From assembly GCA_964019425.1 (NCBI GenBank), contig OZ025805.1, positions 372,001 through 436,000 of the forward strand: DNA of 64,000 nucleotides. The letters run 5' to 3'. Below, piece after piece: positions 1,043 through 54,717 of the stretch. How positions within the stretch are numbered: the stretch's first letter is position 1; each line of letters starts with the position of its first letter. Under the pieces are notes generated by a model. The model had not been told where the DNA came from and ran no database searches. It saw only the letters and a program-made list of their open reading frames with translations. The DNA is from Flectonema sp. DT1601. Lineage: Eukaryota. The position numbers were made by a program, and so were the translations under genes.

Positions 1043-1807
1043 TATTTTATTGCATGGCATTTGCTCCAGATCGAAGTTATTATTATTTTTAAAACAGCTA
1101 CCCGGATGTACATTATTTTAGACAGAGGCTATCCGAAATTTTCAACTTTTTCATTATAGTTTTTTATAAACAATGTTTTTTTTTAATCTAAACTTCCATC
1201 ACAGGATACTTTTTCTCACCACAAGAACTCTTGCGATGCAGGTTTCTGTAGTGTTTCCCGACTCAGGATTTGGAGATGCAGTTTTGACATCAACATCAGA
1301 GTCTGTCGTACGTGATGTTATAGAAACAGTTAACTGAGGAATGGGATGTTGACTCAGAATTTATTGAGATGATGGTATTGCGGTGATGTTTTTTAGAAAG
1401 GAATGGTTTTACTGATTTGAATAAGATAAATAAATTGCTAACACCGAGTAATGACATTTATTTTGAACAATAAAATTAGATTAGACTTGTGAGACATTTA
1501 GCCCTGATCAGTAGCATAGGATCAGAGTTTATATTCGGTTGGGAATATTTGAAAAAAATAAGCAGGGAAGTTCTCCATTGATATCGGAAATGAGTACCTA
1601 GGCATGGGTCACATCCTTGTAGTGTTCACTTTTATTCATTCAGGTCACTGAAACAGATGAATCCTTTAGTAAAACAGTATTCATACCCCTTTGAGGGAAT
1701 GTAATTACATGTCGCATCCTCGTAGTATTCGATACCCAGATGTCACTTGTACGAGTTCTTTCTAACAGAACCTTTCCCACCTCACAGCAAATTATTTAAA
1801 AAAGACA
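1043..1807 (+). repeat. Duplicated upstream segment of Ubl-LRR genes (second copy about 11386-12181)
   Basis: Near-identical sequence from ATATTTTATTGCATGGCATT to CACAGCAAATTATTTAAAAAA in both places. Confidence 0.85.
1236..1400 (+). pseudogene. Divergent, frameshifted 5' fragment of a ubiquitin-like domain gene (second copy from 11565)
   Basis: MQVSVVFPDSGFGDAVLTSTSESVVRDVIETVN* resembles the MQVFVTCPDWGLPAVTVTAGADSVVNDVL N-terminus; GAGGAATGGGATGTT (EEWDV) follows out of frame. Confidence 0.65.
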
Positions 1808-2369
1808 ATGCAAGTTTTTGTGACGTGTCCTGATTGGGGACTCCCCGCAGTGACAGTGACGGCTGGTGCTGATTCAGTTGTGAACGACGTGTTGACAGAG
1901 GCTGCTGAGGAATGGGATGTGGATCCGGAGGAAGTTGAACTCTCGTTTGCTGGTGATACCCTTTGCGAAATTGATCGGCTGGCAGATCATGGAGTGGTTG
2001 CAAACAGCGAGTTGGAAATGTGGAAGAAGCAGTTTAGGATATTCGGTAAAAGCTGGTTTGTTGATGATGCAAAACGGGAGCAGCTGCTTCTTTGGATGAG
2101 AGATCACATTGCGGAGTATTTATGTCTGGACACTGCCACATTCGCAGAAGATGGTTGCCTAACTGTTGACGGTGACCTTCTTCCTTCAGATGCCGAACAG
2201 GTAGCTTTCCGCAATTCAAATTCCAACAGCACAGCCATGTCATCAGTTACCACTATCGGAGATGAGTTCTTGTCTTCCTGTTCACAAATTACTTCTCTTG
2301 ACCTTTCAAGTCTTAGTAGTGTCACCACTATAGGAAACTTATTCTTGTCTTCCTGTTCACAAATCACTT

Positions 2370-2437
2370 GGGATCACGACACCTGCCTCCTCGCGGCGGT
2401 CCCGGACGACTTCGATAGGGGTCGACAAAACAGTGTC
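2370..2437 (+). ncRNA. HDV-like self-cleaving ribozyme at the LINE 5' end
   Basis: P1 GGGATC/GGTCCC; P2 GACAC(C)T/AGTGTC; P3 GCC/GGC with loop TCCTCGC; P1.1 CC/GG; P4 CGACTTC/GGGGTCG; J4/2 with C2426 followed by As. P1 is 6 bp and P2 is bulged, so the fold is slightly non-canonical. Confidence 0.72.
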
Positions 2438-5341
2438 AAACACAAGAGATGCCAACAACATCAAAACCATCAAAACCAGCTACAACATCCAGAGCATACA
2501 AACCCTGGCTTGTCAAATAAAGAACGGAATAAACTAGCCCATGCCTTGAATGGCAATGGTGGACCAGGAAAGGACAGCAGAGACCGACGCCCGCGAGACG
2601 ATACTCGCGACAGGGACGAAAACCGTCCAAACAAGGAGGAACGTCGCATAGCGAAGCTCGAGAAAGAGAAACTCGACTCGCTAGACGAGATAGAGGAAGA
2701 GAAGCAACGACTGGGGCAGCAGAGAATGGCCATGGAACAGCACCACCACCAGAAGGAAACCAACCTTCAAGGACAAGAAAAACAGTTGGAACAGCAACGC
2801 CAACACCAACAACAAGAACTGCAAAGTCAGTACCACCAACAACAGCAGCAACTGCAAAGCCATCATCAGCTGAAGGAAACGGAAAGTCTCCAGAAGGAGC
2901 AAAACCTACAGGCTCAACTCAAGGAGCGACACCAGCACCAACAGAAGGAATTGGAGAAGCAATACCGCCAACAACAACAGCAACTGGAAAGCCAACAGCA
3001 GAAGAAGGACGCCGAGTCTGAACAGCAAACACATCTGACTCGGTCACAACTACAGAAGGAAAAGGAATCCTTCCAGACAGAGAAGGAACGGCTCCACCTC
3101 CAGCTGGATCAGCAGTTGAAGAACGAGAAGGAGCACCTCCACCAACAACTCCAACAGAAGGAAGACGAGGTTCGTAAAGAAAAGTTAGCAGAGAGAATAG
3201 AACTCCAACAACTGCGAGATGAACTAACTCAACAAGAACAGAACATCCAACGACGTGAGGAAGAGGTGAACCGAGGACAGCACCAACTACACCAACAACA
3301 ACAACAACTAGAGCAGCAGCAACAGCAATCGCAACATCAGCAACTGGAACTACAACAACAACGGCAACAACAGCAACAGCAACAACAGCATCAACAACTG
3401 GAACTGGAACAACAACAACTACAACAGCAACAGCAACTGCAACAACATCGACAACCGCAACAACAACCGCAACAGCAACCCGTACACTACATGCAACATC
3501 AACCGTATGCAACGTACGACACCTACGCCCAGCAGCAGCAGTCTTCCCACTACGAAGGGCTACAACAGGAACTGAAGCGGGAAAGAGAGGAGAAGAGCGA
3601 ACTACGCGAGATGCTCCGAACTCTCCAACAACAACTGGACGGATTGAGAGAAGAACTCAAGGCCCAACATGCTGAGGCGAAGAGGCAGCAGGAAACGGCG
3701 GGACGAGAAGCGAGAGAGATGCAAGAACGTTTCTTGCTAGAACTCGAAGCGGAACGGGTCCAGATCAGAGGGCTCAACTCACTGAGAGAAGAGGAAGAGG
3801 AACTTCAGATGGACACCACCCCTGATCAGGAAGCAAACACGGAAGTGAAGCAAACGCCACCAGTGAAGCTGCCCCAAGACGGTATGAGGGAGCTGGACGC
3901 CTCACGCAAGAAGCTGATGAAAGAAATCAATGAAGGGCAGGTAGCCGGACGATCGGCCATCCAAGAGCAGATGGTCCGAGAGGCCGGGAGACTGGCGCAG
4001 ACTCAGAAGAGCTGGGAGAACGCAGCACGCAAGGAGCGATCCAGGGTGGATAACCTCTCGCTGGCACCGGAATACTGGCCAGAGGGAATGGCGATCACGA
4101 AGGAGCAGTACGACGCCGGTGCAAAGGGAGTACACCTCACCACCAGAGAGGAGGCAAGGAAGAGGATGTCGGGAACACCTCCGGGAGCCTGGGAAACGTT
4201 ATCCCTGGTAACCCTGGAACCACCATCAGACACGGCGCAGAAAGTACAGGTAGTACTAAAGGAGACGACGAGCGACGGCGAGAAGAGAATTCTCAAGCAG
4301 CTCTGGATGACAACACTGGGAAGAGTGGTTGTACCATCCGGAACAGACGTCGTGCGGACGGAAAGCACGAGGGAGATGGTTGTCCGGGTGGACAAAAAAT
4401 GGTCCGGAGAGAAGAGATGGTCGGAAGTGAAGCGCTCCCCGTTCAGGGCAACGGAGGAATTGAAGAAGATGCCGGGGTATGTCGATACGTACAACCCGCG
4501 GATCGGAGACCAGAGCGTGACCGTGATGCTCAGGGTGAAGGTAGCCGAAGTGAAGAACTTCCTCCGAGAATCGGGGAAGGACGGCGTCTTCACCAAGGAA
4601 AAGGATCCGAGAGAGGAACGAGCAGTGAAGGCGGCGGTCATTTGGCTACCGAAGGACGAGACGCTCGGAATCGCTCGGGACAAGGCTGTAGAAGTCGATG
4701 GAGGGCTGGGACTCGTGGTAAACGAACACGGACTCGGGCTTCGAGTGACCAGCTGGCAGGAAACGGCGGCGAGGGAGAAACTGCACCTGCCGGCTAAGCT
4801 ACCGGAAACAAAGATCACGGGTATCCCGATCGGCACAACCACCGACGAAGCGATCAAGTGGCTGATCACGAAGGAAGGCTGGGAAGTGAGGAAGACGAAG
4901 GAAGGCGTACGGAACGGCATGCGATGGATGGTCGTCCGCGGTCCGGTGAGAACGCAGGAAACCATCACAGTGGATGGCGTCCTGTGCATGGTGGAGGCTG
5001 GGAAACAGAAGGAGGAAGTCGACCCGAAACGGAAGGAGACCAAACGCCCGAATGCGACACCGACGAAACCAGAGAAAAGGCGTGACCCGACGGAGGGAAC
5101 GGGAGGAAAGTGGTACACTCGATTGGAGTTCATCGAGTTTCATGGGAAGAAGAAGGGACAACGCCTATGGTTAGAAGCCAGCAACCCAACACCAACTACG
5201 ACGGCACCTACGAAGACAGCGACCGCAACGACAACAGCGAGAAAGGAGCCCAAGTCGACAAAAAAGAAGGAGAACAGCTCAGTGGACGAGAGATTGGACC
5301 GACTGGAACGTCTACTGATGGCGTTCATGGAACGGAATTGA
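2370..5341 (+). CDS. LINE ORF1: Q/E-rich coiled coil plus globular C-terminal region; true start uncertain
   Basis: Open from the element 5' end (in frame with host ATG 1808) to TGA 5339-5341; first in-frame ATG is only at about 2725. Confidence 0.85.
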
Positions 5342-8300
5342 CCGGCGGAGGACGGAAGGAACTGGGCGGAGACACGGAGACGTCTCCTGCTACAAGCTGG
5401 CGACGTTGAGAGGAACCCCGGACCGAGACCACGAATCGATGGGCTCACCGTGGGAACAATCAATGTCACCACACTAGAAGGAAAAATAGATGCCATCACA
5501 GATCTGAACCTAGATCTGATAGCTCTACAGGAAACTTCTCTGACGGGCCCACAGCAACGCCAGATGAAAAAACAGCTCGGTGAGAGAGGATGGGAGGCGA
5601 CGTTCGGGTTAGAGTGCAAATTACTAACCGATGGGCAAAAGACGTGGACGGCGGCGGGAGGCGTGGCCATCTTGACGCGCACTGGTACACCGGTGAGAAG
5701 GATAAAACACGATCGGCTCGACAACACAGGACGATTCGTACACGCGGGAGTGTCGTACGGAAATGGCAAGGTACTGCACGTTTTCTCGTTCTACGGAGAC
5801 GTACGTTCGGCGGTCTACACGGAAGAGTTGATTGCGGAGATGCTCGTGGAAGCAGCAGCTCTGGGTGATGTTCCCGTATTTATAGCGGGGGACTTCAACG
5901 TCGAAACAACGGAATCGCCGGCGCTTCTGTCGGCTTTCGCACACGGACTCTGGATAGATGCCGCCGTCTCGATGGGAAACATGACACCGACAAGCGAAGC
6001 GGGAAAAGGACTTCGTAGAATCGATGCTATTCTGATGAACCGCGGGGCGGCGACAGCAATCTCGAATGACACAACGATCCATGTGCATAAGAGTGAGCTG
6101 ATCCCGACACACAAGCCGGTCATCATTAGAAAGCTCAACATCTCACGCTACAACGAGAAGGCTCCTAGGCTGATAGTACCGAAACAGTTGGATACCTCCG
6201 AGACAACGGACCCGCGTGAGGGGAAGGCCGAAAGGCAACTCCACTGGACGCGAGCTGTAGCGACGGAAGATCCTGACAAGATGCTGGAGGCGCTTGGAGA
6301 GATCATCGAAAGATACCTTCTGACGGGAAAGCTGGAGATAAGTAACCCAGCCAAGTACAAGGGACGCGGGAAGAAGCGTGAGCCTGTGATGTGGACGAAC
6401 GCGGCGAAACAAGACGGGAGAGGAGCGACGTGCAGGGAAACGCGGAGAAGACTGCAGAAGATACGTGTTCTGGAGGAAGTGATGAAAATCACAAAGCAAC
6501 GCGATGGTCCGACGGTGCCGTCCCACGAAGTAATGAAACTCTGGAAAAAATTACGAAAACTCGATCCGACGACGGGATCCGAAATACCACAGACGGAGGA
6601 GCTTCGGATACTACTACAACAAGCGAGACAGGAGCAAGCGATAGAAAGCAAGAAGCTCCGAACTGAACGCATCCGCATGTGGAAACGGAATGTTGTCGAC
6701 AATTGGAATGACGACCGCACGAAGGTTTTCCAGTGGATCAGGAACGTCGAGCAATCGAAGACTGTTCTGATGGAAAAGGCAGATGGAAGCTGGACGGCCA
6801 ACTGCTCCGAGATGGATGAGGCCATGCACGCGGCATGGGACCCCATACTCAAAAAGTACTTGTCAGACCCGGAACCAGACTGGATGAAGTTCGAAGAACG
6901 GTACAGCAACTACATCGAGGAACACCCGATGCGATGCGAAGATATCACCGGGGAGGACGTTGCAAAAGCCCTCAGAAGGACTAGCTCGCGCAAAGCAGCT
7001 GGGGTAGACGGCTTCAGGATATCGGAGCTCAAGTTGCTACCGGAGGACATGATCCAGATGATAGCGGAATTCTACAACATAGTGGAGAGAACACACTGGC
7101 CGGAAGCACTTCTCACGGCACTGGTGTCGGCCATACCCAAAGGGGCAGGGACGAAACCACTGGAGCAGAGACCCATTACGGTGACATCCGCACTTTACAG
7201 GCTATGGGGCTGTATACGTATGGAAAAGGATGTAATGGAGTGGCAAGAAAAGTGGGCTCACGACGGGCAGTACGGCTACCGGAAGGGGAGATCTACGCTC
7301 GACCTCAGCTGGAAGATAGCACTAGACGTGGAACACGCAACTCTCTACGGAGAAGAGATTGCTGGAGTGACCACGGACTTCAGGAAGTGTTTTGACCTGA
7401 TCCCGCACGACATCCTCCTGAAATTAGTGAAGGAATTGGGCCTCGGTAATAAGATCCTGAGAACTGTGACGGATGTCTACCGGCGACTCAGAAGGAGATT
7501 CAAGTTCCCGAGCGGCGTCGGAGAAGAATTTGCCACCACCAACGGAATACTGCAAGGATGCCCGCTCAGCGTGGTGCTCTTCAATGCGCTGAGCTCGATA
7601 CTCAGCAAAGCAATCGAGAGGGAAGCCGATGTGACGCCCGGATCGTATGCGGACGACCTGACATTGTTTGGATCACGAACGAAGCTACAAGAAGGCGTGG
7701 AAGTCGTTGCGGAGTTCTGCACCCTGACCGGACAAGAACTCGCGCCTCAGAAATGCAAGTGGTTCTCGAACAGAGACCAGAGCCAGACCAACATCACAAT
7801 GGGGGACACAACACTGGACTTCGATGACAGTGTCGATATCGTGGGATGCCACCTCAGTATGAAAGGAACCACCAAGCAGATGGGGAGGATCACAGAAGAA
7901 GTGCTCGATAGAGCGAGGCGAATCCGGTTACTTCCGCTCAGATATCAAGCGAAGGAACAGATAGCTGCAGCTAGTGTCATGCCCAAGGCGCTCTTCGGAA
8001 CGGCACTGTACGATCCCGATGCGACGCGACTCGGACTGCTGAGAAGAGCAATGGCAACGGGGATTTTCCGCAAACTTGGAGGGAAAAGAACTAAGATGTC
8101 GCACACCATGGGCCTAACGCTACTCTGCAAGGGACATTGTGTGGATCCCGCGACGTACATTAGGTACAACAGACTCCTTGCACTCACCAGAATGCTACCG
8201 AAGCTAACTGAGAGGATACGCAGGGTATGGGAACACCTGCAAGAGCACACTGAAGCGACGAGAGGACCAGTCGGCCTCGCCCTGAGTACTCTGAAGGAAC

Positions 8301-10078
8301 TTGGATGGGAATGGTCAACTTTCTCGGTCTTCGAAGGTCCGGGAGGGACGACCGAACACGGACGGCTGGATGCGGGGCGCTGGCGGCACGATGTCAGAGA
8401 GGCGTGCAGGCGTTTCACCTGGAACAAAACAATTGCGGAAACGAGACGGGTAAACCTGAGAGGTATTGAAGCGGGCATCGACCGGAAAGAGACCCTGAAG
8501 GTCCTGAAGGAAGGAAAGGGCGACCCCTACCTGCGCGGAGTAGTGAAGCACTGCCTCCTGGACAACGTGTACACTGGTTCGATGAAGGCGGGAAACAAGA
8601 ACTGCGCGCACTGCGAGGAGGTTGACGACGTAGAGAGGACGGAGACCCTCGAGCACGTGAACTGGGATTGCAGAGCTTATGACACGATCCGACAGGAATA
8701 CCCGCAAGTGATGCTACAAGTTCGAAGCGATTGGCCCAATTGCCTGAGGCTACTCGGCATCAAGCCCGACAATGTGGAACTGCCGGCGGGGCTCACCGGA
8801 GACCTACAACGAATGTTCGCACGGATCAGGCTCCGCAGGGACGAGTACCAACAACTGGAGGAGAGACGGCTGACGGTTGTGGAATACGCTGGGAACAAAG
8901 AACCGGAAGTAGTTATGCGATACAACAACAAACTGGAAAAGTACATGCCAGTATACACCCAATGGCCCGAAGCCCTTGGATTGACCTTGTACTTAGCGCT
9001 TGCGAGCTACCTGAGGGAACTGAAGTGGCCTCGACAGCCAGACGGGGTCGGAGTCACCTTCCTGGAATTAGCGATCGACTTCGAAGCGTATGCGGGGGTT
9101 GACATACCGACCACAGTCCACGAAGGCCACGTAGCGAAGTGCACCAAAGACAGAGCCGCCGGGAAGAAAGCTGACGTCATGTGTGGACTGATGCTAAGAT
9201 TGAACTTGGTTCACAAGCATTTAGAAGGCGAGGAACAAAGAACCTTTCCCGACTACTGCGTAGGAAGCAACAAAGCCTTACGTCCACTAGGAGCCCCGGT
9301 ACTGAAAGGTTTGAAGAAACGACCAGCTTTTCTGATGGGAGACGAAACAGTAGACACAATTCGGAGGACGGTCCAAGAGGCGAACGACGGAAAAGCTGAC
9401 AAAATCAGATTCGGCTTCGAGACTGAGTGCAGGCACTCGAGCGAGAGGGAAGGGAGAGCGGAGAAATGGATAACCGCGGCACGACTTTTCCCATCAAAGG
9501 AAAAAGACGTACAGCTGAGGAGGGAGCTCTGCGAGCGAGGACCGACACGCCCGCCACCCGAGGTCGTCAAGAGACCGGGCATCGCGGAGGGACAAGGAAC
9601 GATGAACTCGACGTGCTACGGACACTTCAAGAAGAAATGCAATAGTTGTCGACGGGCCGGAAACACCATCTACCAGTGCTGCCACAACCATCACACTCTG
9701 GGGGATGAAGATGGACAAATACCGATATGGGACTTTTGCAGCAAGCACAAGCTTACTCCATGTGCAGTCTGCATAGTGATCGGCAGAGGATCTGAGCAAT
9801 GTTGCAGAAACAGCCACCACCGATGCCGTCACCACGAGATGGCTCCCTGCAACGACTGCAAGCGGAATCCGGATCCGGAACAACGGACTGCCACGAAATG
9901 CTGCAACAAAAAGCATCACGGGCCAATTATAAGGACGTTGACGAGGAGGGCGAAGCAGCCGACGAAGCATGATATGCAAACCAGCACATCGCTTCTAAAA
10001 TTAGGTTTCACCAAACAAATGAAACCAAAAGCAGAGGAAACCCCTGAAAGGGAACCCCAGGACAAGGGGTTAACTTAG
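5342..10078 (+). CDS. LINE ORF2: 2A peptide, APE endonuclease, reverse transcriptase, CCHC zinc finger, C-terminal Cys/His repeats
   Basis: APE motifs TINV, IALQET, GGVAIL, AGDFN, RIDAIL, PTHKP; RT motifs QRPIT, DFRKCFD, GILQGCPLS, YADD (7646-7657); CAHC...ETLEHVNWDC; frame is open from the base after the ORF1 stop. Confidence 0.95.
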   Translation, partial: PAEDGRNWAETRRRLLLQAGDVERNPGPRPRIDGLTVGTINVTTLEGKIDAITDLNLDLIALQETSLTGPQQRQMKKQLGERGWEATFGLECKLLTDGQKTWTAAGGVAILTRTGTPVRRIKHDRLDNTGRFVHAGVSYGNGKVLHVFSFYGDVRSAVYTEELIAEMLVEAAALGDVPVFIAGDFNVETTESPALLSAFAHGLWIDAAVSMGNMTPTSEAGKGLRRIDAILMNRGAATAISNDTTIHVHKSELIPTHKPVIIRKLNISRYNEKAPRLIVPKQLDTSETTDPREGKAERQLHWTRAVATEDPDKMLEALGEIIERYLLTGKLEISNPAKYKGRGKKREPVMWTNAAKQDGRGATCRETRRRLQKIRVLEEVMKITKQRDGPTVPSHEVMKLWKKLRKLDPTTGSEIPQTEELRILLQQARQEQAIESKKLRTERIRMWKRNVVDNWNDDRTKVFQWIRNVEQSKTVLMEKADGSWTANCSEMDEAMHAAWDPILKKYLSDPEPDWMKFEERYSNYIEEHPMRCEDITGEDVAKALRRTSSRKAAGVDGFRISELKLLPEDMIQMIAEFYNIVERTHWPEALLTALVSAIPKGAGTKPLEQRPITVTSALYRLWGCIRMEKDVMEWQEKWAHDGQYGYRKGRSTLDLSWKIALDVEHATLYGEEIAGVTTDFRKCFDLIPHDILLKLVKELGLGNKILRTVTDVYRRLRRRFKFPSGVGEEFATTNGILQGCPLSVVLFNALSSILSKAIEREADVTPGSYADDLTLFGSRTKLQEGVEVVAEFCTLTGQELAPQKCKWFSNRDQSQTNITMGDTTLDFDDSVDIVGCHLSMKGTTKQMGRITEEVLDRARRIRLLPLRYQAKEQIAAASVMPKALFGTALYDPDATRLGLLRRAMATGIFRKLGGKRTKMSHTMGLTLLCKGHCVDPATYIRYNRLLALTRMLPKLTERIRRVWEHLQEHTEATRGPVGLALSTLKELGWEWSTFSVFEGPGGTTEHGRLDAGRWRHDVREACRRFTWNKTIAETRRVNLRGIEAGIDRKETLKVLKEGKGDPYLRGVVKHCLLDNVYTGSMKAGNKNCAHCEEVDDVERTETLEHVNWDCRAYDTIRQEYPQVMLQVRSDWPNCLRLLGIKPDNVELPAGLTGDLQRMFARIRLRRDEYQQLEERRLTVVEYAGNKEPEVVMRYNNKLEKYMPVYTQWPEALGLTLYLALASYLRELKWPRQPDGVGVTFLELAIDFEAYAGVDIPTTVHEGHVAKCTKDRAAGKKADVMCGLMLRLNLVHKHLEGEEQRTFPDYCVGSNKALRPLGAPVLKGLKKRPAFLMGDETVDTIRRTVQEANDGKADKIRFGFETECRHSSEREGRAEKWITAARLFPSKEKDVQLRRELCERGPTRPPPEVVKRPGIAEGQGTMNSTCYGHFKKKCNSCRRAGNTIYQCCHNHHTLGDEDGQIPIWDFCSKHKLTPCAVCIVIGRGSEQCCRNSHHRCRHHEMAPCNDCKRNPDPEQRTATKCCNKKHHGPIIRTLTRRAKQPTKHDMQTSTSLLKLGFTKQMKPKAEETPEREPQDKGLT
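5381..5425 (+). other. 2A/StopGo ribosome-skipping peptide RLLLQAGDVERNPGP
   Basis: Exact D(V/I)ExNPGP match with the typical upstream LLLxxG, in the ORF1/ORF2 frame. Confidence 0.92.
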
Positions 10079-12181
10079 GTTGGCCGAACCAGTGCCTCGT
10101 CATCTCACCGTGCTAGCAAGCCTGAATGACAGCACTCAAAATGGTACATATATTCCTGTTCACAAATCACTTCTGTAAACCTTTCAGGTCTTAGTAGTGT
10201 CACCATAGTAGGAGGTGGATTCCTGTTTTCCTGTTCACGAGTCGTTTCTCTTGATCTTTCTTGTCTTAGTAGTGTCACCACTATAGGAAACTTATTCTTG
10301 TCTTCCTGTTCACAAATCACTTCTGTAAACCTTTCAGGTCTTAGTAGTGTCACCATAGTAGGAGGTGGATTCCTGTTTTCCTGTTCACGAGTCGTTTCTC
10401 TTGATCTTTCTTGTCTTAGTAGTGTCACTACTATTGGTGATAATTTCTTGTCTTACTGTTCACAAATCACTTTTCTCGACCTTTCAGGTCTCAATAGTGT
10501 CACCTCTATTGGTGATGATTTCTTGTATTCTTGTAAACGGATAGCAACAGTTGACCTTTCAGGTCTTAGTAGTGTCACCACTATTGGGAATAATTTCTTG
10601 TTTTCCTGTGAACAAATCACTTCTCTTGACCTTTCAGGTCTTTGCTGTGTTACTTCTATTGGAGATAGTTTCCTTTCTTTCTGTACACAAATCACTTCTG
10701 TGAACCTTTCGGGTCTTGATAGTGTAACCGCTATAGCAAATGACTTCTTGCGTTGTTGTGTATGTATTATTTCTCTTGATCTTTCAAGTCTTATTAGTGT
10801 CACCACAATAGGAAGTAATTTCTTGCGTAGTTGTTCAGAAATCACTTCTCTTGACCTTTCAAGTCTTGGTAGTGTCACCACTATTGGTGATGACTTTCTC
10901 AGTGAATGCGACGCTCTTGAATCTGTGCAGCTGCCTGAAAGTAATAGCGTTCTCTTTGAGGAGTCTGTGAAAGCAGCGATTGATCACTCAGGTTAAAGTG
11001 GTGAGTTGATTCTTAAAGTTTTGTTATTTTTGTTATTTTTGTTTTATTAATTAGTTGACCTTCGTGTACATTCTGACTAAAATATGAAAACTTCTTATCA
11101 AAGATTACGGAATAAGAACAATCATCGATTTGAGAACTACTTTAAAAGGTATTCCGGTCACATAAAAGAAAGGAAAGAAGAGTAAGAAAAGAAAATAATA
11201 ATTAAGAATATTTAAGAAAATAATATTTAAAAAAAGTAAATAAGTAAAAAAAAATGCTCCACAAGGCCGTGACCGTGGTATACGTTTCTCCAAACTTTTG
11301 GTTGGAATTGTAAGTTTTCCCTTAATAAAAAGTTCATTGTGACGATAACAACCCCATTTTTATTCTCCTTTTTAAAACTTTCTTAATATTTTATTGCATG
11401 GCATTCACTCCAGATCGAAGTTAATATTATTTTTCTTAAAACAGCGACACGGATGTAAATTATTAGAGACAGAGGCTATCCGGAATTTTACATTTTTATT
11501 AAAAATGCTTTTTTTTAATCTAAACTTCCATCACAGGATAATTTTTCTCACAAGAACTCTTGCGATGCAGGTTTCTGTAGTGTTTCCCGACTCAGGATTT
11601 GGAGATGCAGTTTTGACATCAACATCAGAGTCTGTCGTACGTGATGTTATAGAAACAGTTAACTGAGGAATGGGATGTTGTCAGAATTTATTGAGATGAT
11701 CGTATTGCGGTGATGTTTTTTAGAAAGGAATGGTTTTACTGATTTGAATAAGATAAATAAACTGCTAACACCGAGTAATGACATTTATTTTGAACAATAA
11801 AATTAGATTCGACTTGTGAGACATTTACTGTTGAAGATGTATTGATTTGATATCGAGTTGGGTAATTGTTTCCTATCTAACCTTCATTTGGTAATCTGAT
11901 CAGAGTTTACATTTGGTTGGGAATATTTGAAAAAAATAAGCAGGGAAGTTCTCCATTGATATCGGAAATGAGTACCTAGGCATGGGTCACATCCTTGTAG
12001 TGTTCACTTTCATTCATTCAGGTCACTGAAACAGATGAATCCTTTAGTAAAACAGTATTCATACCCCTTTGAGGGAATGTAATTACATGTCGCATCCTCG
12101 TAGTACTCGATACCCAGATGTCACTTGTACGAGTTCTTTCTAACAGAACCTTTCCCACCTCACAGCAAATTATTTAAAAAA

Positions 12182-14055
12182 GGGTTATGGCCCAAAATAC
12201 CCCAAAGTGGCCCAAAATACCCCGAAGTGGCCCAAAATACCCCAAAGTGGCCCAAAATACCCCGAAGTGGCCCAAAATACCCCGAAGTGGCCCAAAATAC
12301 CCCAAAGTGGCCCAAAACCCGGTCTGGCTGTGCACCCTGGGGTCCCAACCACATAGCTGGGTATGAGGATGGGTCACAGTCACCAGGTATTACTCATACA
12401 ACCATCAGGGTTTAGAGCATCACAAGCACCAGACAGGTCACCTAAATTTACTCGAAAGTTTGGGCAATTCGAACGTCAGCATTCACATTAGCAAGCAACC
12501 AGTCCTGAGTACTTAAAGAACCCAACCATTACGTGTATCAGCCACAGTCACACTTAGTATAGCGTTAGTACAGAGGACACGGATCTGCTATGCAGGGAAG
12601 TGACTTGAACTCGTTCAACTAATTAATGTGTGCAGATATAAGCGCCGCGAATTGACGGGTCTGAAGTTATGCTTTCCGAAGAGAGTAACCACCCACGCGA
12701 GTGTTATTTTGACGCCATAACCTGTAGCTTTCAACACATAACAACCAGGGATAATTCTCAGTAAGGCCGCCGTCACCGTGAAGCTGCTACGAATATAACC
12801 CAACAAACTAGCAATTCCTCCAACTTTGTTCATATGTGCAGACACATAGTCAGCTACACACTTGGAGACTTTCTTAATCTCTTTAAGCTACTTTGCTTTA
12901 GCAGTGGATCTTGCTTATACTATTTTTTTGGCTGAGTTTCAGTGGCAGCAGGTTGAGTTTCAACTATGTTTCGGGCATCTTAGAGATTGAGAATAAAAGT
13001 TCGTAGTAAAAGAGTAAAAGCCTAGAGAGAATGAAAACATTTGTGATTAGGAACCTGAACACTTTACTGAACGAAGCATCGTAGGCAACCAGTTTCCTTC
13101 GAGAATCTGCAGGTGGTGCAGGGCTAAATCGAGATGAGGAAGATAACACCCGTACACCTTAAGCGCACACGGATGTTGAGATAACGTTTGTATGATGTTC
13201 ACTTGACGAGATTATCAAAGACAAATACTCACGGATAGGTTGGGTTGCTCTTCAGGTCCTGATAGTATTCTCAGCCTCTGGAAGTTTTACTGAGTGCATG
13301 CAAAGAACGGTATGTGTGCAGGGCTGGGTCACCTTACAGAGAACTGCTGTCCTCTTACACGTCATTCCAACCGAATTTCAAAGTCAAGACACCTGCGAGT
13401 TACAGACAGCCTGGTCGCAAGCGACACTCCTGTTTCTGACCGGGTTATCAGGGTATCTAACTCATGCAGGCATGAGAGCTTTTTTAAGGCTACTTTGAAT
13501 TATCAAGAGCGCAGTACTGCCCGAAGGGTTCCCGCGTGTCAAGATGCATTTGCATGTACTGAGCAGAAGTTCCAGAAAGAAGATTACTTTTATCATTTCC
13601 CAAGTCATCACATCCTTAACCGTTTGTGTTATTAGCTTTCAATCAATCCATTACCATAAATCCACAGATGAGTGTGCTGAATAGAAAGTAAAACGGGACG
13701 GCAAAAAGCTTTTGTCCAAGTGACACAGAAATACTGGCCAGGCAGGTTCCAAAAAGAAGTTTCAAGAAAAAAAAACAAGAAAAAAAAAAAAAAAATTGGC
13801 AGTGGAAAAAGTTACAACTTGTAGTGAACAGCGAAAAAAAAAACATCACTTCCAGTTTCTGTACACACATTATCCTGATTTACAAGTTCCCAAAGCCGGG
13901 TTCGGTATATTTTGGACCACTTCGGGGTATTTTGGGCCACTTTGGGGTATTTTGGGCCACTTTGGGGTATTTTGGGCCACTTCGGGGTATTTTGGGCCAC
14001 TTTGGGGTATTTTGGGCCATTTGCAAAAAAAGTGGGGTATTTTGGGCCATTGCCC
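12182..14055. mobile_element. Non-autonomous foldback/Mutator-like DNA transposon with minisatellite TIRs
   Basis: Ends GGGTTATGGCCC... and ...GGGCCATTGCCC; arms of 20-bp tandem units GGCCCAAAATACCCC(A/G)AAGT (about 12189-12318 and 13905-14048, inverted); 9-bp TSD TTTAAAAAA at 12173-12181 and 14056-14064; empty site visible near 1795-1803. Confidence 0.88.
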
Positions 14056-14944
14056 TTTAAAAAATGACAATGCAAGTTTTTGTGACGTGTCCTGATTGGG
14101 GACTCCCCGCAGTGACAGTGACGGCTGCTGCTGATTCAGTTGTGAACGACGTGTTGACGGCGGCGGCTGGGGAGTGGGATGTGGATCCGGATGAAGTTGA
14201 ACTCTCGTTTGCTGGTGATACCCTTTGTGAAACTGATCGGCTGGCAGATCATGGAGTGGTTGCAGACAGCGAGTTGGAAATGTGGAAGAAGCAGTTTAGG
14301 ATATTCGGTAAAAGCTGGTTTGTTGATGATGCAAAACGGGAAAAGCTGCTTCTTTGGATGAGAGATCACATTGCGGAGTATTTATGTCTGGACACTGCCA
14401 CATTCACAGAAGATGGTTGCCTCACTGTTGACGGTGACCTGCTTCCTTCAGATGCCGAACAGGTTGCTTTCCGCAATTCAAATTCCAACAGCACAGCCAT
14501 GTCATCAGTTAACACTATTGGAGATGGATTCTTGTCTTCCTGTTCACAAATTACTTCTCTTGACTTATCATGTCTTTGTAGTGTCACTACTATTGGACAT
14601 AGATTCTTATATTTCTGTTCAGAAATCACTTCTGTAAACCTTTCAGGTCTTAGTAGTGTCACTACTATTGGAGATAAATTCTTATATTATTGTTCAAGGA
14701 TCGAAGTTATTATTATTTTTAAAACAGCGACGCGGATGTAAATTATTTGAGACAGAGGCTATCTGGAGTTCTACATTTTATATTTTACTCTAACTTCTGA
14801 CTTCTTGAGGAAAATAAATACATGAAGTAGAAATGTAAGGAAGTACAGTATTGATGTATGTGTTTGAACTGTTCAATAATCAGAAAGACTCACAAGCAGC
14901 GATTCGTACTTCTGTTTTTCGTTTGAAATCAATGAATAATGTAA

Positions 14945-15059
14945 TGGCCTTCCGACGCCACCTGGACCGCAACTCGTTCACAGTGCCCTACCCGGTTCTC
15001 CACCGGACCGTCTGAGCGACGGGATCCATGGGATTCAAACCCCTAAACACTGGTTAATC
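14945..15059 (+). mobile_element. 3' fragment of the ~690-bp ribozyme-headed short retroelement
   Basis: TGGCCTTCCGACGCC...CACTGGTTAAT matches the last ~115 bp of the full copies and abuts an LRR at the usual register. Confidence 0.9.
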
Positions 15060-15154
15060 TAATTGTTCAAGGATTACTTCTCTTGACCTTTCAGGTCTTA
15101 GTAGTGTCACTGTTATTGGAGATTGCTTCTTGTGTTGCTGTAAACAAATCACTA

Positions 15155-15227
15155 GGGTAACGAAACTCGGACAGCGCGCCTCCTCGTGGTGTTGCCTGGA
15201 TGCACCTTGTGTGTAACTAGAGTGCTG
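15155..15227 (+). ncRNA. HDV-like ribozyme heading the short retroelement (also 51349-51421, 52362-52434, 53149-53221, 54025-54097)
   Basis: P1 GGGTAAC/GTTGCCT with G1-U wobble; P2 CAGCGC/GTGCTG; P3 GCC/GGT with loop TCCTCGT; P1.1 CC/GG; P4 TGCAC/GTGTA; J4/2 ACTAGA. Confidence 0.9.
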
Positions 15228-15834
15228 ACGTATTGTTGTTGTTGCTGTGTATTCTTTTACCCCCGTTTTATTTTCCGGTAGCCTAACCTTTAAAAAAAAA
15301 GGACAACATAGCAGAAGGTCAGGTGATCCGGCCCGGGATACTCAGGCACCCAGAGCTCACAGGGGCCACCGGGTTTTTATTTTTTCCTTAGTGGCATGAT
15401 TTCCCTTTACCCCCATTTCCTTCAAACTTCCCCCGTTTAGTCTTTTCACGCATGGGGGGATTATAAGTTCAGGTCGCCTGAAATGTATTAACAGTATCAG
15501 CCCCGCGAGTTACTCGGGAAGCTCCCATGCAATGTGTGGAGAAAGAGGCCATCCCTCCCCCTACCTCTCTGCTTTACTACGTCGTTTTTTGTGTGTGGCA
15601 TTTCTTTTCTTTTCAATCCTGTTCTTTCACACGCGGTTGTTCGAGCGGTTGTGAACCACCTTGGGTCTCTTACGGTCTCCAAGCTACTGTTGTGCGAAGA
15701 AACAAATCTGTTGGTGCGGTGGCCTTCCGACGCCACCTGGACCGAAACTCGTTCACAGTGCCCTACCCGGTTCTCCACCGGACCGCCTGAGCGACGGGAT
15801 CCATGGGATTCAAACCCCTAAACACTGGTTAATT
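15155..15834 (+). mobile_element. Non-autonomous short retroelement (SINE/SIDER-like), copy A
   Basis: 20-bp TSD TTGCTGTAAACAAATCACTA at 15135-15154 and 15835-15854; near-identical to four copies at 51-55 kb. Confidence 0.95.
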
Positions 15835-51348: not shown

Positions 51349-52047
51349 GGGTAACGAAACTCGGATAGCGCGCCTCCTCGTGGTGTTACCTGGATGCACC
51401 TTGTGTGTAACTAGAGTGCTGACGTATTGTTGTTGTTGCTGTGTATTCTTTTACCCCCGTTTTATTTTCCGGTAGCCTAACCTTTAAAAAAAAAAAAGGA
51501 CAACATAGCAGAAGGTCAGGTGATCCGGCCCGGGATACTCAGGCACCCAGAGCTCACAGGGGCCACCGGGTTTTTATTTTTTCCTTAGTGGCATGATTTC
51601 CCTTTACCCCCATTTCCTTCAAACTTCCCCCGTTTAGTCTTTTCACGCATGGGGGGATTATAAGTTCAGGTCGCCTGAAATGTATTAACAGTATCAGCCC
51701 CGCGAGTTACTCGGGGAGCTCCCATGCAATGTGTGGAGAAAGAGGCCATCCCTCCCCCTACCTCTCTGCTTTACTACGTCGTTTTTTGTGTGTGGCATTT
51801 CTTTTCTTATATTCTTTTCTTTTCAATCTTGTTCCTTCACACGCAGTTGTTCGAGCGGTTGTGAACCACCTTGGGTCTCTTACGGTCTCCAAGCTACTGT
51901 TGTGCGAAGAAACAAATCTGTTGGTGCGGTGGCCTTCCGACGCCACCTGGACCGCAACTCGTTCACAGTGCCCTACCCGGTTCTCCACCGGACCGCCTGA
52001 GCGACGGGATCCATGGGATTCAAACCCCTAAACACTGGTTAATTTTT
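51349..52047 (+). mobile_element. Short retroelement, copy B
   Basis: TSD TTCCTGTTACCACATCACTG at 51329-51348 and 52048-52067. Confidence 0.95.
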
Positions 52048-52361: not shown

Positions 52362-53053
52362 GGGTAACGAAACTCGGACAGCGCGCCTCCTCGTGGTGTT
52401 GCCTGGATGCACCTTGTGTGTAACTAGAGTGCTGACGTATTGTTGTTGCTGTGTATTCTTTTACCCCCGTTTTATTTTCCGGTAGCCTAACCTTTAAAAA
52501 AAAAGGACAACATAGCAGAAGGTCAGGTGATCCGGCCCGGGATACTCAGGCACCCAGAGCTCACAGGGGCCACCGGGTTTTTATTTTTTCCTTAGTGGCA
52601 TGATTTCCCTTTACCCCCATTTCCTTCAAACTTCCCCCGTTTAGTCTTTTCACGCATGGGGGGATTATAAGTTCAGGTCGCCTGAAATGTATTAACAGTA
52701 TCAGCCCCGCGAGTTACTCGGGGAGCTCCCATGCAATGTGTGGAGAAAGAGGCCATCCCTCCCCCTACCTCTCTGCTTTACTACGTCGTTTTTTTGTGTG
52801 TGGCATTTCTTTTCTTATATTCTTTTCTTTTCAATCTTGTTCCTTCACACGCAGTTGTTCGAGCGGTTGTGAACCACCTTGGGTCTCTTACGGTCTCCAA
52901 GCTACTGTTGTGCGAAGAAACAAATCTGTTGGTGCGGTGGCCTTCCGACGCCACCTGGACCGCAACTCGTTCACAGTGCCCTACCCGGTTCTCCACCGGA
53001 CCGCCTGAGCGACGGGATCCATGGGATTCAAACCCCTAAACACTGGTTAATTT
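52362..53053 (+). mobile_element. Short retroelement, copy C
   Basis: TSD TTACTGTTTAGGAATCACTT at 52342-52361 and 53054-53073. Confidence 0.95.
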
Positions 53054-53148: not shown

Positions 53149-53854
53149 GGGTAACGAAACTCGGATAGCGCGCCTCCTCGTGGTGTTGCCAGGATGCACC
53201 TTGTGTGTAACTAGAGTGCTGACGTATTGTTGTTGTTGCTGTGTATTCTTTTACCCCCGTTTTATTTTCCGGTAGCCTAACCTTTAAAAAAAAAAAAGGA
53301 CAACATAGCAGAAGGTCAGGTGATCCGGCCCGGGATACTCAGGCACCCAGAGCTCACAGGGGCCACCGGGTTTTTATTTTTTCCTTAGTGGCATGATTTC
53401 CCTTTACCCCCATTTCCTTCAAACTTCCCCCGTTTAGTCTTTTCACGCATGGGGGGATTATAAGTTCAGGTCGCCTGAAATGTATTAACAGTATCAGCCC
53501 CGCGAGTTACTCGGGGAGCTCCCATGCAATGTGTGGAGAAAGAGGCCATCCCTCCCCCTACCTCTCTGCTTTACTACGTCGTTTTTTTGTGTGTGGCATT
53601 TCTTTTCTTATATTCTTTTCTTTTCAATCTTGTTCCTTCACACGCAGTAGTTCGAGCGGTTGTGAACCACCTTGGGTCTCTTACGGTCTCCAAGCTACTG
53701 TTGTGCGAAGAAACAAATCTGTTGGTGCGGTGGCCTTCCGACGCCACCTGGACCGCAACTCGTTCACAGTGCCCTACCCGGTTCTCCACCGGACCGCCTG
53801 AGCGACGGGATCCATGGGATTCAAACCCCTAAACACTGGTTAATTTTTTTTTTT
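53149..53854 (+). mobile_element. Short retroelement, copy D (flanks do not match)
   Basis: Left flank TTCCTGTTCAGGAATCACTA, right flank TTCCTGTTTGCGTGTCACTT; both in target register. Confidence 0.93.
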
Positions 53855-54024: not shown

Positions 54025-54717
54025 GGGTAACGAAACTCGGACAGCGCGCCTCCTCGTGGTGTTGCCTGGATGCACCTTGTGTGTAACTAGAGTGCTGACG
54101 TATTGTTGTTGTTGCTGTGTATTCTTTTACCCCCGTTTTATTTTCCGGTAGCCTAACCTTTAAAAAAAAAGGACAACATAGCAGAAGGTCAGGTGATCCG
54201 GCCCGGGATACTCAGGCACCCAGAGCTCTCAGGGGCCACCGGGTTTTTATTTTTTCCTTAGTGGCATGATTTCCCTTTACCCCCATTTCCTTCAAACTTC
54301 CCCCGTTTAGTCTTTTCACGCATGGGGGGATTATAAGTTCAGGTCGCCTGAAATGTATTGACAGTATCAGCCCCGCGAGTTACTCGGGGAGCTCCCATGC
54401 AATGTGTGGAGAAAGAGGCCATCCCTCCCCCTACCTCTCTGCTTTACTACGTCGTTTTTTGTGTGTGGCATTTCTTTTCTTATATTCTTTTCTTTTCAAT
54501 CTTGTTCCTTCACACGCAGTTGTTCGAGCGGTTGTGAACCACCTTGGGTCTCTTACGGTCTCCAAGCTACTGTTGTGCGAAGAAACAAATCTGTTGGTGC
54601 GGTGGCCTTCCGACGCCACCTGGACCGCAACTCGTTCACAGTGCCCTACCCGGTTCTCCACCGGACCGCCTGAGCGACGGGATCCATGGGATTCAAACCC
54701 CTAAACACTGGTTAATT
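54025..54717 (+). mobile_element. Short retroelement, copy E
   Basis: TSD TTCCTGTTCAGGAATTACTA at 54005-54024 and 54718-54737. Confidence 0.95.

Follow-up and report, generated by a model that had tools for sequence, protein, structure and literature searches.

Near the start of ORF1 in a non-LTR retrotransposon of Flectonema sp. DT1601 lies a 16-residue sequence, LSNKERNKLAHALNGN, which, judged by sequence comparison, is a real and conserved motif and the same as the NGN cleavage signal of viruses. Its placement in retroelements is new to the literature consulted, and its distribution is much wider than given there. On balance it appears probable that the pattern W-x-[LI]-S-x-K-x-R-N-[KR]-x-[AMQ]-H-x-x-N-G-N represents a second, 2A-unrelated class of protease-free self-processing in dsRNA and several (+)RNA virus lineages, LINE and DIRS-like elements, and that a diplonemid LINE clade inserts in frame in host multigene families, borrows the host start codon, and cuts the resulting leader off. 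That the LINE site is cut at all is very probable. The particular route that we prefer, a co-translational, protease-free split of ORF1 after the last Asn of NGN that would release a 927-residue ORF1p from its leader, is a tentative proposal and close to an even call. The signal has been published as NKxMHxxNGN, the cleavage motif of IMNV and Omono River virus (OmRV) (PMC7968656). In literature searches lying mostly outside subscription journals and supplements, motif strings led to that paper only, and combined terms to neither a wider class nor use by retroelements.

The motif and the element that carries it

The window (the whole stretch of 64,000 nucleotides that was analysed) encodes exactly RNKLAHALNGNG at 2525-2560 on the forward strand, just where the first-pass annotation had noticed a motif in ORF1, in the frame of a 1191-codon ORF (1766-5341); the site is the single match to N[KR]xxHxxNG across the window's six frames. 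It lies 53 codons from the start of the LINE, with a Q/H/N-rich stretch on one side and an R/D-rich stretch on the other. The conserved unit is longer than RNKLAHALNGNG and comprises the 16 residues at 2510-2557 (+), with the core NKLAHALNGN at 2528-2557 and a predicted scission at 2557/2558 (Asn|Gly). Counted back from that scission, Asn at P10, His at P6 and Asn-Gly-Asn at P3-P1 are all present as in the IMNV/OmRV type, and six of the seven fixed positions of NKxMHxxNGN, a consensus which the annotation had given and which is indeed in print (PMC7968656), are identical; at P7 the published type has Met and the window Ala. Scored with a position matrix drawn from 135 viral motif contexts, Ala-type copies excluded, the site reaches 30.1 bits, while the runner-up among 64,622 stop-free six-frame 16-mers reaches -0.2 and the maximum over 300 shuffles of the ORF is 1.0 bits. 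AlphaFold places a helix across NKERNKLAHAL, ending at P4 and followed by coil (pLDDT 71), and the only PDB match to the motif is the OmRV precursor as deposited (E=3.3). Other accounts of the sequence were considered and rejected: conservation due to out-of-frame ATGs within the motif (their ORFs span 2-33 codons, and codons differ by residue between families), descent of the NPGL just 5' of the motif from a 2A (it is missing from other copies), and likeness to the HALNN stretch of Josephin domains (there is no Cys).

The carrier is an intact APE/RT non-LTR retrotransposon (2370-10152), in frame within a host Ubl-LRR gene and bounded by a 20-bp target duplication (left copy 2350-2369, right copy 10153-10172, both +); an ORF with APE and RT, a target-site duplication, and no LTR place it in the APE type. 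The 5' part of the host gene, with Ubl and BspA-LRR, occupies 1808-2369 (+; Rad60-SLD, E=0.005, and LRR_5), and its 3' part extends with the right duplication over 10153-10996 (+). Five paralogues of this gene lie in the window, at 14061, 46359, 48496, 50823 and 55771. The regions 1200-1800 and 11520-12180, both upstream, are nearly identical and contain a degenerate copy of the start of the Ubl-LRR gene; a 20-base tandem repeat (12188-12320) comes after the second. Among contigs of three sequencing runs one piece, from run X1, spans the host-element junction; X1 is possibly the window's own source, and the piece therefore gives no independent support. Named relatives of the element are those of Flectonema neradi and Diplonema papillatum, which points to a diplonemid or close kin as the probable host.

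A predicted HDV-like ribozyme (2370-2437, +) begins at the element's first base and is also translated in the host frame. The predicted fold is a nested double pseudoknot of P1, P1.1, P2, P3 and P4, with pairing of 6/6 in P1, 5/5 in P2, 3/3 in P3 and 7/7 in P4, UCCUCGC as L3, and CC/GG for P1.1; the descriptor matches exactly at base 2370 and in 0 of 200 shuffled elements, and the usual J4/2 spacing requires a small internal loop in P2. Rfam gave no ribozyme match at 2370-2437, and the MFE is ordinary (z 0.61), free-energy folding being uninformative for a pseudoknot. L1Tc/ingi elements are alike in the ribozyme fold at the first base, APE and RT, a 2A ahead of APE, and euglenozoan relatives, and it is by HDV-like ribozymes that L1Tc-type elements are freed from co-transcripts with the host (PMC4035085). 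Unlike what is described there, the window element has two ORFs and no RNase H match, its predicted ribozyme is translated as part of the host frame, and it sits at a fixed codon register of multigene families that encode proteins.

From the ATG at 1808, which belongs to the host gene and is the sole in-frame ATG 5' of the motif, the frame stays open across ribozyme, leader and motif as far as the stop codon of ORF1; the element's first in-frame ATG does not occur before 2726. Shuffles of the leader likewise stay open in 335 of 2000 cases, and by itself the open leader frame is weak evidence. Cleavage at NGN|G would yield a 250-residue host-led fragment and a predicted mature ORF1p of 927 residues (2558-5341, +; TGA at 5339-5341) with a basic start, a Q-rich coiled coil, and RRM-like domains. 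The latter rest on modelling of the C-terminal part, for which the best Foldseek match is raver1 RRM1-3 (E 3.5e-4, low TM-score); ESM Atlas matches of ORF1 to DUF4780 and Pre-C2HC (0.76-0.80) are leads only. In frame 3' of the ORF1 stop and ahead of APE stands a canonical 2A-like peptide with the D[VI]ExNPG|P core, W..RRRLLLQAGDVERNPG|P (GDVERNPGP; 5363-5425, +), and the Flectonema relative P0004 has the same peptide. ORF2 (5342-10078, +) encodes an AP endonuclease (~5489-6058), a reverse transcriptase (~7157-7783) and a Cys/His-rich C-terminal region (no Pfam match at 9600-9950), and is followed by the 3' untranslated end of the element (10079-10152, +), whose limit is set by the right duplication. 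It is in frame with the ORF1 TGA and has no ATG for 74 codons (none before 5564); an AUG-less ORF2 opening with a 2A suggests stop read-through or re-initiation in this family. In Flectonema relatives P0004/P0005 the N-terminus is longer by ~180 residues, which include an AUG and show a weak likeness to Josephin.

Related ORF1 families and insertion in frame

Conservation in related LINEs, a check proposed in the first-pass annotation, bears the motif out and supports that annotation's reading of it as a processing signal that would free ORF1 from a leader. Relatives of ORF1 were sought with its C-terminal half alone, the motif not being used, and 7 proteins in five families were found; the motif is present in four of the five (NKLAHALNGNG, NKLAHTINGNG, NKLAHSANGNG, and, in a Flectonema family whose ORF1 C-terminal domain is 39% identical, NKEAHITNGNG), in each where a leader, host-derived or short, gives way to the ORF1 coiled coil. 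Over 17 motif residues the four families are 59-76% identical; outside the motif, the window shares 4-8% identity with the other three on the upstream side and 3-31% on the downstream side. The P0025/P0048 family is missing the motif and retains a full ORF1. Two further relatives, recovered by way of the motif and hence no unbiased addition to the count, are P0217, which scores 292 bits against the ORF1 profile, and P0213, with E 1.4e-14 in a set of 181 proteins. P0169 (Eupelagonema) failed the ORF1 profile and the P0188 family matched it weakly (E ~5e-4 among 181 proteins), and for these reasons both were left out of the family count. A profile search with the ORF1 domain gave no additional distant family, and none of 363 candidate ORF1 relatives from JGI metagenomes was confirmed.

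Likewise, the in-frame fusion to a host Ubl-LRR gene, which the same annotation had mentioned, does exist, and further copies and families show it too. LRR-gene fusions at the window's register occur in P0021, P0032, P0033, and Flectonema P0027/P0053, all known through gene calls, which favour open frames; the transcriptome-assembly names carried by P0027/P0053 hint at the existence of uncut co-transcripts. In the ORF1 clusters to which the window belongs, five other members begin at inner Mets or are fragments, and in P0143 the upstream stretch is non-LRR. Of the 10 members of the P0217 family, 7 are in-frame fusions, with a cathepsin gene as partner in 3 and another short ORF in 4; the remaining 3 have no N-terminus. 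P0217 and P0220-P0226 represent a LINE family lying in frame at one cathepsin-gene site (after CNGGL) and in another gene family, a pattern which, read from the sequences, is site-specific targeting of protein-coding multigene families. ORF1 families B and C keep the motif despite an ATG of their own in the ribozyme region, 38 codons upstream. By back-translation (MPPRGG) the ORF1 start ATG of P0024, P0026, P0025 and P0038 lies inside the ribozyme, in a frame that differs from that of the host-fused families.

A non-coding SINE-like element of ~680 bases occupies the same LRR register as the LINE (15155-15834, 51349-52044, 52362-53052, 53149-53845 and 54025-54717), and in 5/5 copies the host frame stops after 6-20 codons. 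The copies have an HDV-like ribozyme fold of their own, sit at the codon register CxxIT| of paralogous LRR genes, and have 20-bp duplications that are clear in four; their 3' end is unlike that of the LINE. The LRR gene at 14061 bears a second insertion (14697-15065), which begins with sequence resembling 1070-1140 and 11410-11480 and whose 3' sequence is that of the SINE-like element.

Carriers among viruses and other elements

A pattern search in viral and retroelement proteins, also among the checks proposed at first pass, recovered the same motif, the Ala variant too being viral. The back-translated NKxMHxxNGN pattern occurs at at least 122 viral loci, and 77 of the first 80 matches listed lie in ORFs of at least 150 codons; the Ala-form pattern occurs at 12 viral loci against 3 for a scrambled pattern, 2 of those 3 with an internal stop. 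Viral Ala-type sites L126 (LSNKQRNKLAHALNGN) and L132 (LSRKERNKLAHALNGN) share 15 of 16 residues with the window motif. Two upstream residues that were absent from the search pattern also distinguish the types, S at P15 (14/24 Ala-type against 16/118 Met-type contexts, p ~1e-5) and R at P11 (14/24 against 20/118, p ~7e-5), related viruses not being independent in either comparison. Ala-type and Met-type copies stand together in one polyprotein in two cases (L023, L029). Given that Ala-type copies occur in viruses, two of them beside Met-type copies, the published consensus with Met at P7 looks too narrow; the experimentally mapped NGN sites in the literature consulted are Met-type and none is Ala-type.

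A 32-column profile made from the window and 20 viral sites found 200 proteins at E <=0.001 among 1.84 billion, a member of the ORF1 family fused in frame to cathepsin genes being one of them. Among the best 150 of these, 147 have NxxxHxxNGN and 61 have 2-4 copies. Pfam scans of the 120 profile proteins of at least 150 residues placed 31 in a family (24 of the 31 being RdRp, RNA helicase or capsid) and gave no family for the other 89 and no RVT_1 match among the 120. In P0074, P0076 and P0184 the motif separates RdRp from S-domain capsid, and in P0133, a single-ORF DIRS/Ngaro-like element whose RT and RNase H were identified by eye, it stands between RT-RNase H and tyrosine recombinase. Named carriers include Monilinia hypovirus D, Caloscypha fulgens fusagravirus 1, and proteins of Chromera velia and Eupelagonema oceanica. 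The first-pass attribution of the motif to IMNV-like arthropod totiviruses understates its range, which besides viruses of arthropods takes in hypo- and fusagraviruses of fungi as well as Chromera and diplonemids. A metagenome scan for the motif gave 15 loci, none of which matched window ORF1 or ORF2 by tblastn. An 11-codon pattern gave 11 matches in viral contigs and, in 596 Gb of prokaryote genomes, 2 against ~1 expected, one of them in a 53-codon frame; absence from prokaryotes is equally expected if prokaryotes simply need no polyproteins.

In the literature consulted, the mapped cuts are those of OmRV. Its cryo-EM models have the capsid start with Pro789 and the protrusion protein with Ile244, in both cases the residue that follows a motif, and the second OmRV site is NHVMHALNGN (PMC7968656). 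With CM-1 and CM-2 of IMNV/OmRV the window shares the core N-x-x-x-H-x-x-N-G-N, its HALNGN being that of OmRV CM-2; in both the NGN motif and 2A peptides occur in the same genome or element, and in both the motif precedes a structural or nucleic-acid-binding protein. The window differs in having Ala for Met, an extended LSxKxR helix, and a LINE ORF1 after a host-derived leader, and its cut is predicted only.

How the chain may be split

Across 201 instances information is found at P18-P1 and at P1' and none beyond P3'; the profile biases this set to the Ala type, and Met-type sites from the DNA pattern are equally one-sided. Trp at P18 occurs in 66% of profile matches and 11/119 Met-type sites and is not in the window copy. 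P1' is T in 39, I in 18, G in 13, P in 8 and S in 6 per cent. Successive copies are spaced 17-25 residues apart in 14 of 76 cases, and copies adjoin or stand in series with a 2A in L010 (directly after the 2A), P0184 and OmRV. One-sided information, closely spaced copies and a helix ending at P4 together give the build of a 2A-type nascent peptide. Such peptides (PMC3894237) are similarly short, one-sided signals of helix then Gly turn near the start of retroelement ORFs, conserved within ~18-20 residues upstream of the cut; like the NGN motif they are not enriched in prokaryotes, functioning in eukaryotes only, and they too may stand ahead of the ORF1p coiled coil. For ticks, a 2026 survey of such sequences in eukaryotes describes 2A-like peptides in just this place in front of ORF1p, and its main text does not contain 'NGN'. 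Unlike 2A, the NGN motif has no D[VI]ExNPG|P core with Pro at P1', has a free P1' (Thr, Ile, Gly, Pro, Ser), and has an invariant His. Since P1' is not restricted to Pro, 2A chemistry cannot apply as is, and the motif may work like a 2A without being one. The window element also departs from the pattern described in PMC3894237, in which a 2A on ORF2 is linked to ORF1 loss, in having both ORF1 and an ORF2 2A.

In the co-translational proposal, the LINE occupies a fixed register of a host LRR repeat and leaves the host frame open through ribozyme, leader, motif and ORF1, as is observed. Host read-through RNA that escapes the ribozyme would serve as capped mRNA, and RNA that is cut would be a template with a precise 5' end. 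The chain would split at NGN|G, as at the viral sites, the leader here being 250 residues from the host ATG: a nascent helix ending in the N-G-N turn would promote release of the upstream chain at Asn, possibly by attack of the Asn side chain on its own tRNA ester, and elongation would then resume. ORF2 would be reached by read-through of the TGA or by re-initiation, and freed by the classical 2A. Against this, an active ribozyme would remove the host part from the RNA, P0025/P0048 do without the motif, and it persists in families B and C, whose ORF1 has an ATG of its own.

The same cut might instead be post-translational, the N-G-N turn bringing His to the last Asn and a succinimide breaking the next bond, as at the C-termini of inteins, where Asn cyclises to succinimide and the following bond breaks. 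The invariant Asn(P10), His(P6), Gly(P2) and Asn(P1), the predicted helix terminating at P4, and a P1' preference that is not limited to Pro but extends to Thr, Ile, Val, Gly and Ser are consistent with this, and the (predicted) cut after Asn with a nearby His recalls inteins. However, the motif has no HINT domain and only ~18 conserved residues, amide cleavage is poorly catalysed by 18 residues that lack a folded domain, and conserved basic and aromatic residues extend to P18, beyond the needs of such a turn. The position of the OmRV cut after Asn (PMC7968656) accords with Asn cyclisation, which we nonetheless regard as rather unlikely. Quite unlikely, too, is recognition of the motif by a conserved eukaryotic host protease or one encoded by the element. 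Viral NGN cuts are ascribed to proteases in the literature consulted, a figure legend has the capsid precursor processed by cell proteases (PMC5018817), and relatives of ORF2 contain OTU domains (P0010, P0012) or a weak Josephin-like domain (P0004, E=0.012). Yet a protease would have to recognise 18 residues on one side only, constant from fungi to arthropods and protists; window ORF2 has no protease-like N-terminal domain; and by Pfam scans toti-like, noda-like and DIRS-like carriers have no common protease family.

Distinctly unlikely is a LINE motif that does not cut and is a stalling, localisation or binding signal tuning ORF1 output or targeting the protein. The basic helix could direct the protein to the nucleus or to RNA, many 2A-like peptides of eukaryotes reduce protein abundance instead of skipping (PMC13405545), and the P0025/P0048 family manages without the motif, but mature OmRV N-termini lie directly after it in the published models and it recurs at domain borders and in tandem. 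Chance resemblance, for which the shortness of the motif and its Ala in place of the published Met might speak, is refuted for practical purposes by the matrix score (30.1 bits against a background of -0.2) and by local conservation across ORF1 families, the scrambled-pattern control (3 loci against 12) pointing the same way.

If the motif acts alone, as the co-translational proposal would have it, the implications extend beyond this element. The polyproteins of many unclassified RNA viruses, such as single-ORF RdRp-capsid genomes, would be re-annotated, and a second class of linker, with no forced N-terminal Pro, would become available for multi-gene expression. It would also explain how a clean ORF1 protein may come from a LINE that has no start codon of its own and lies inside a host gene.
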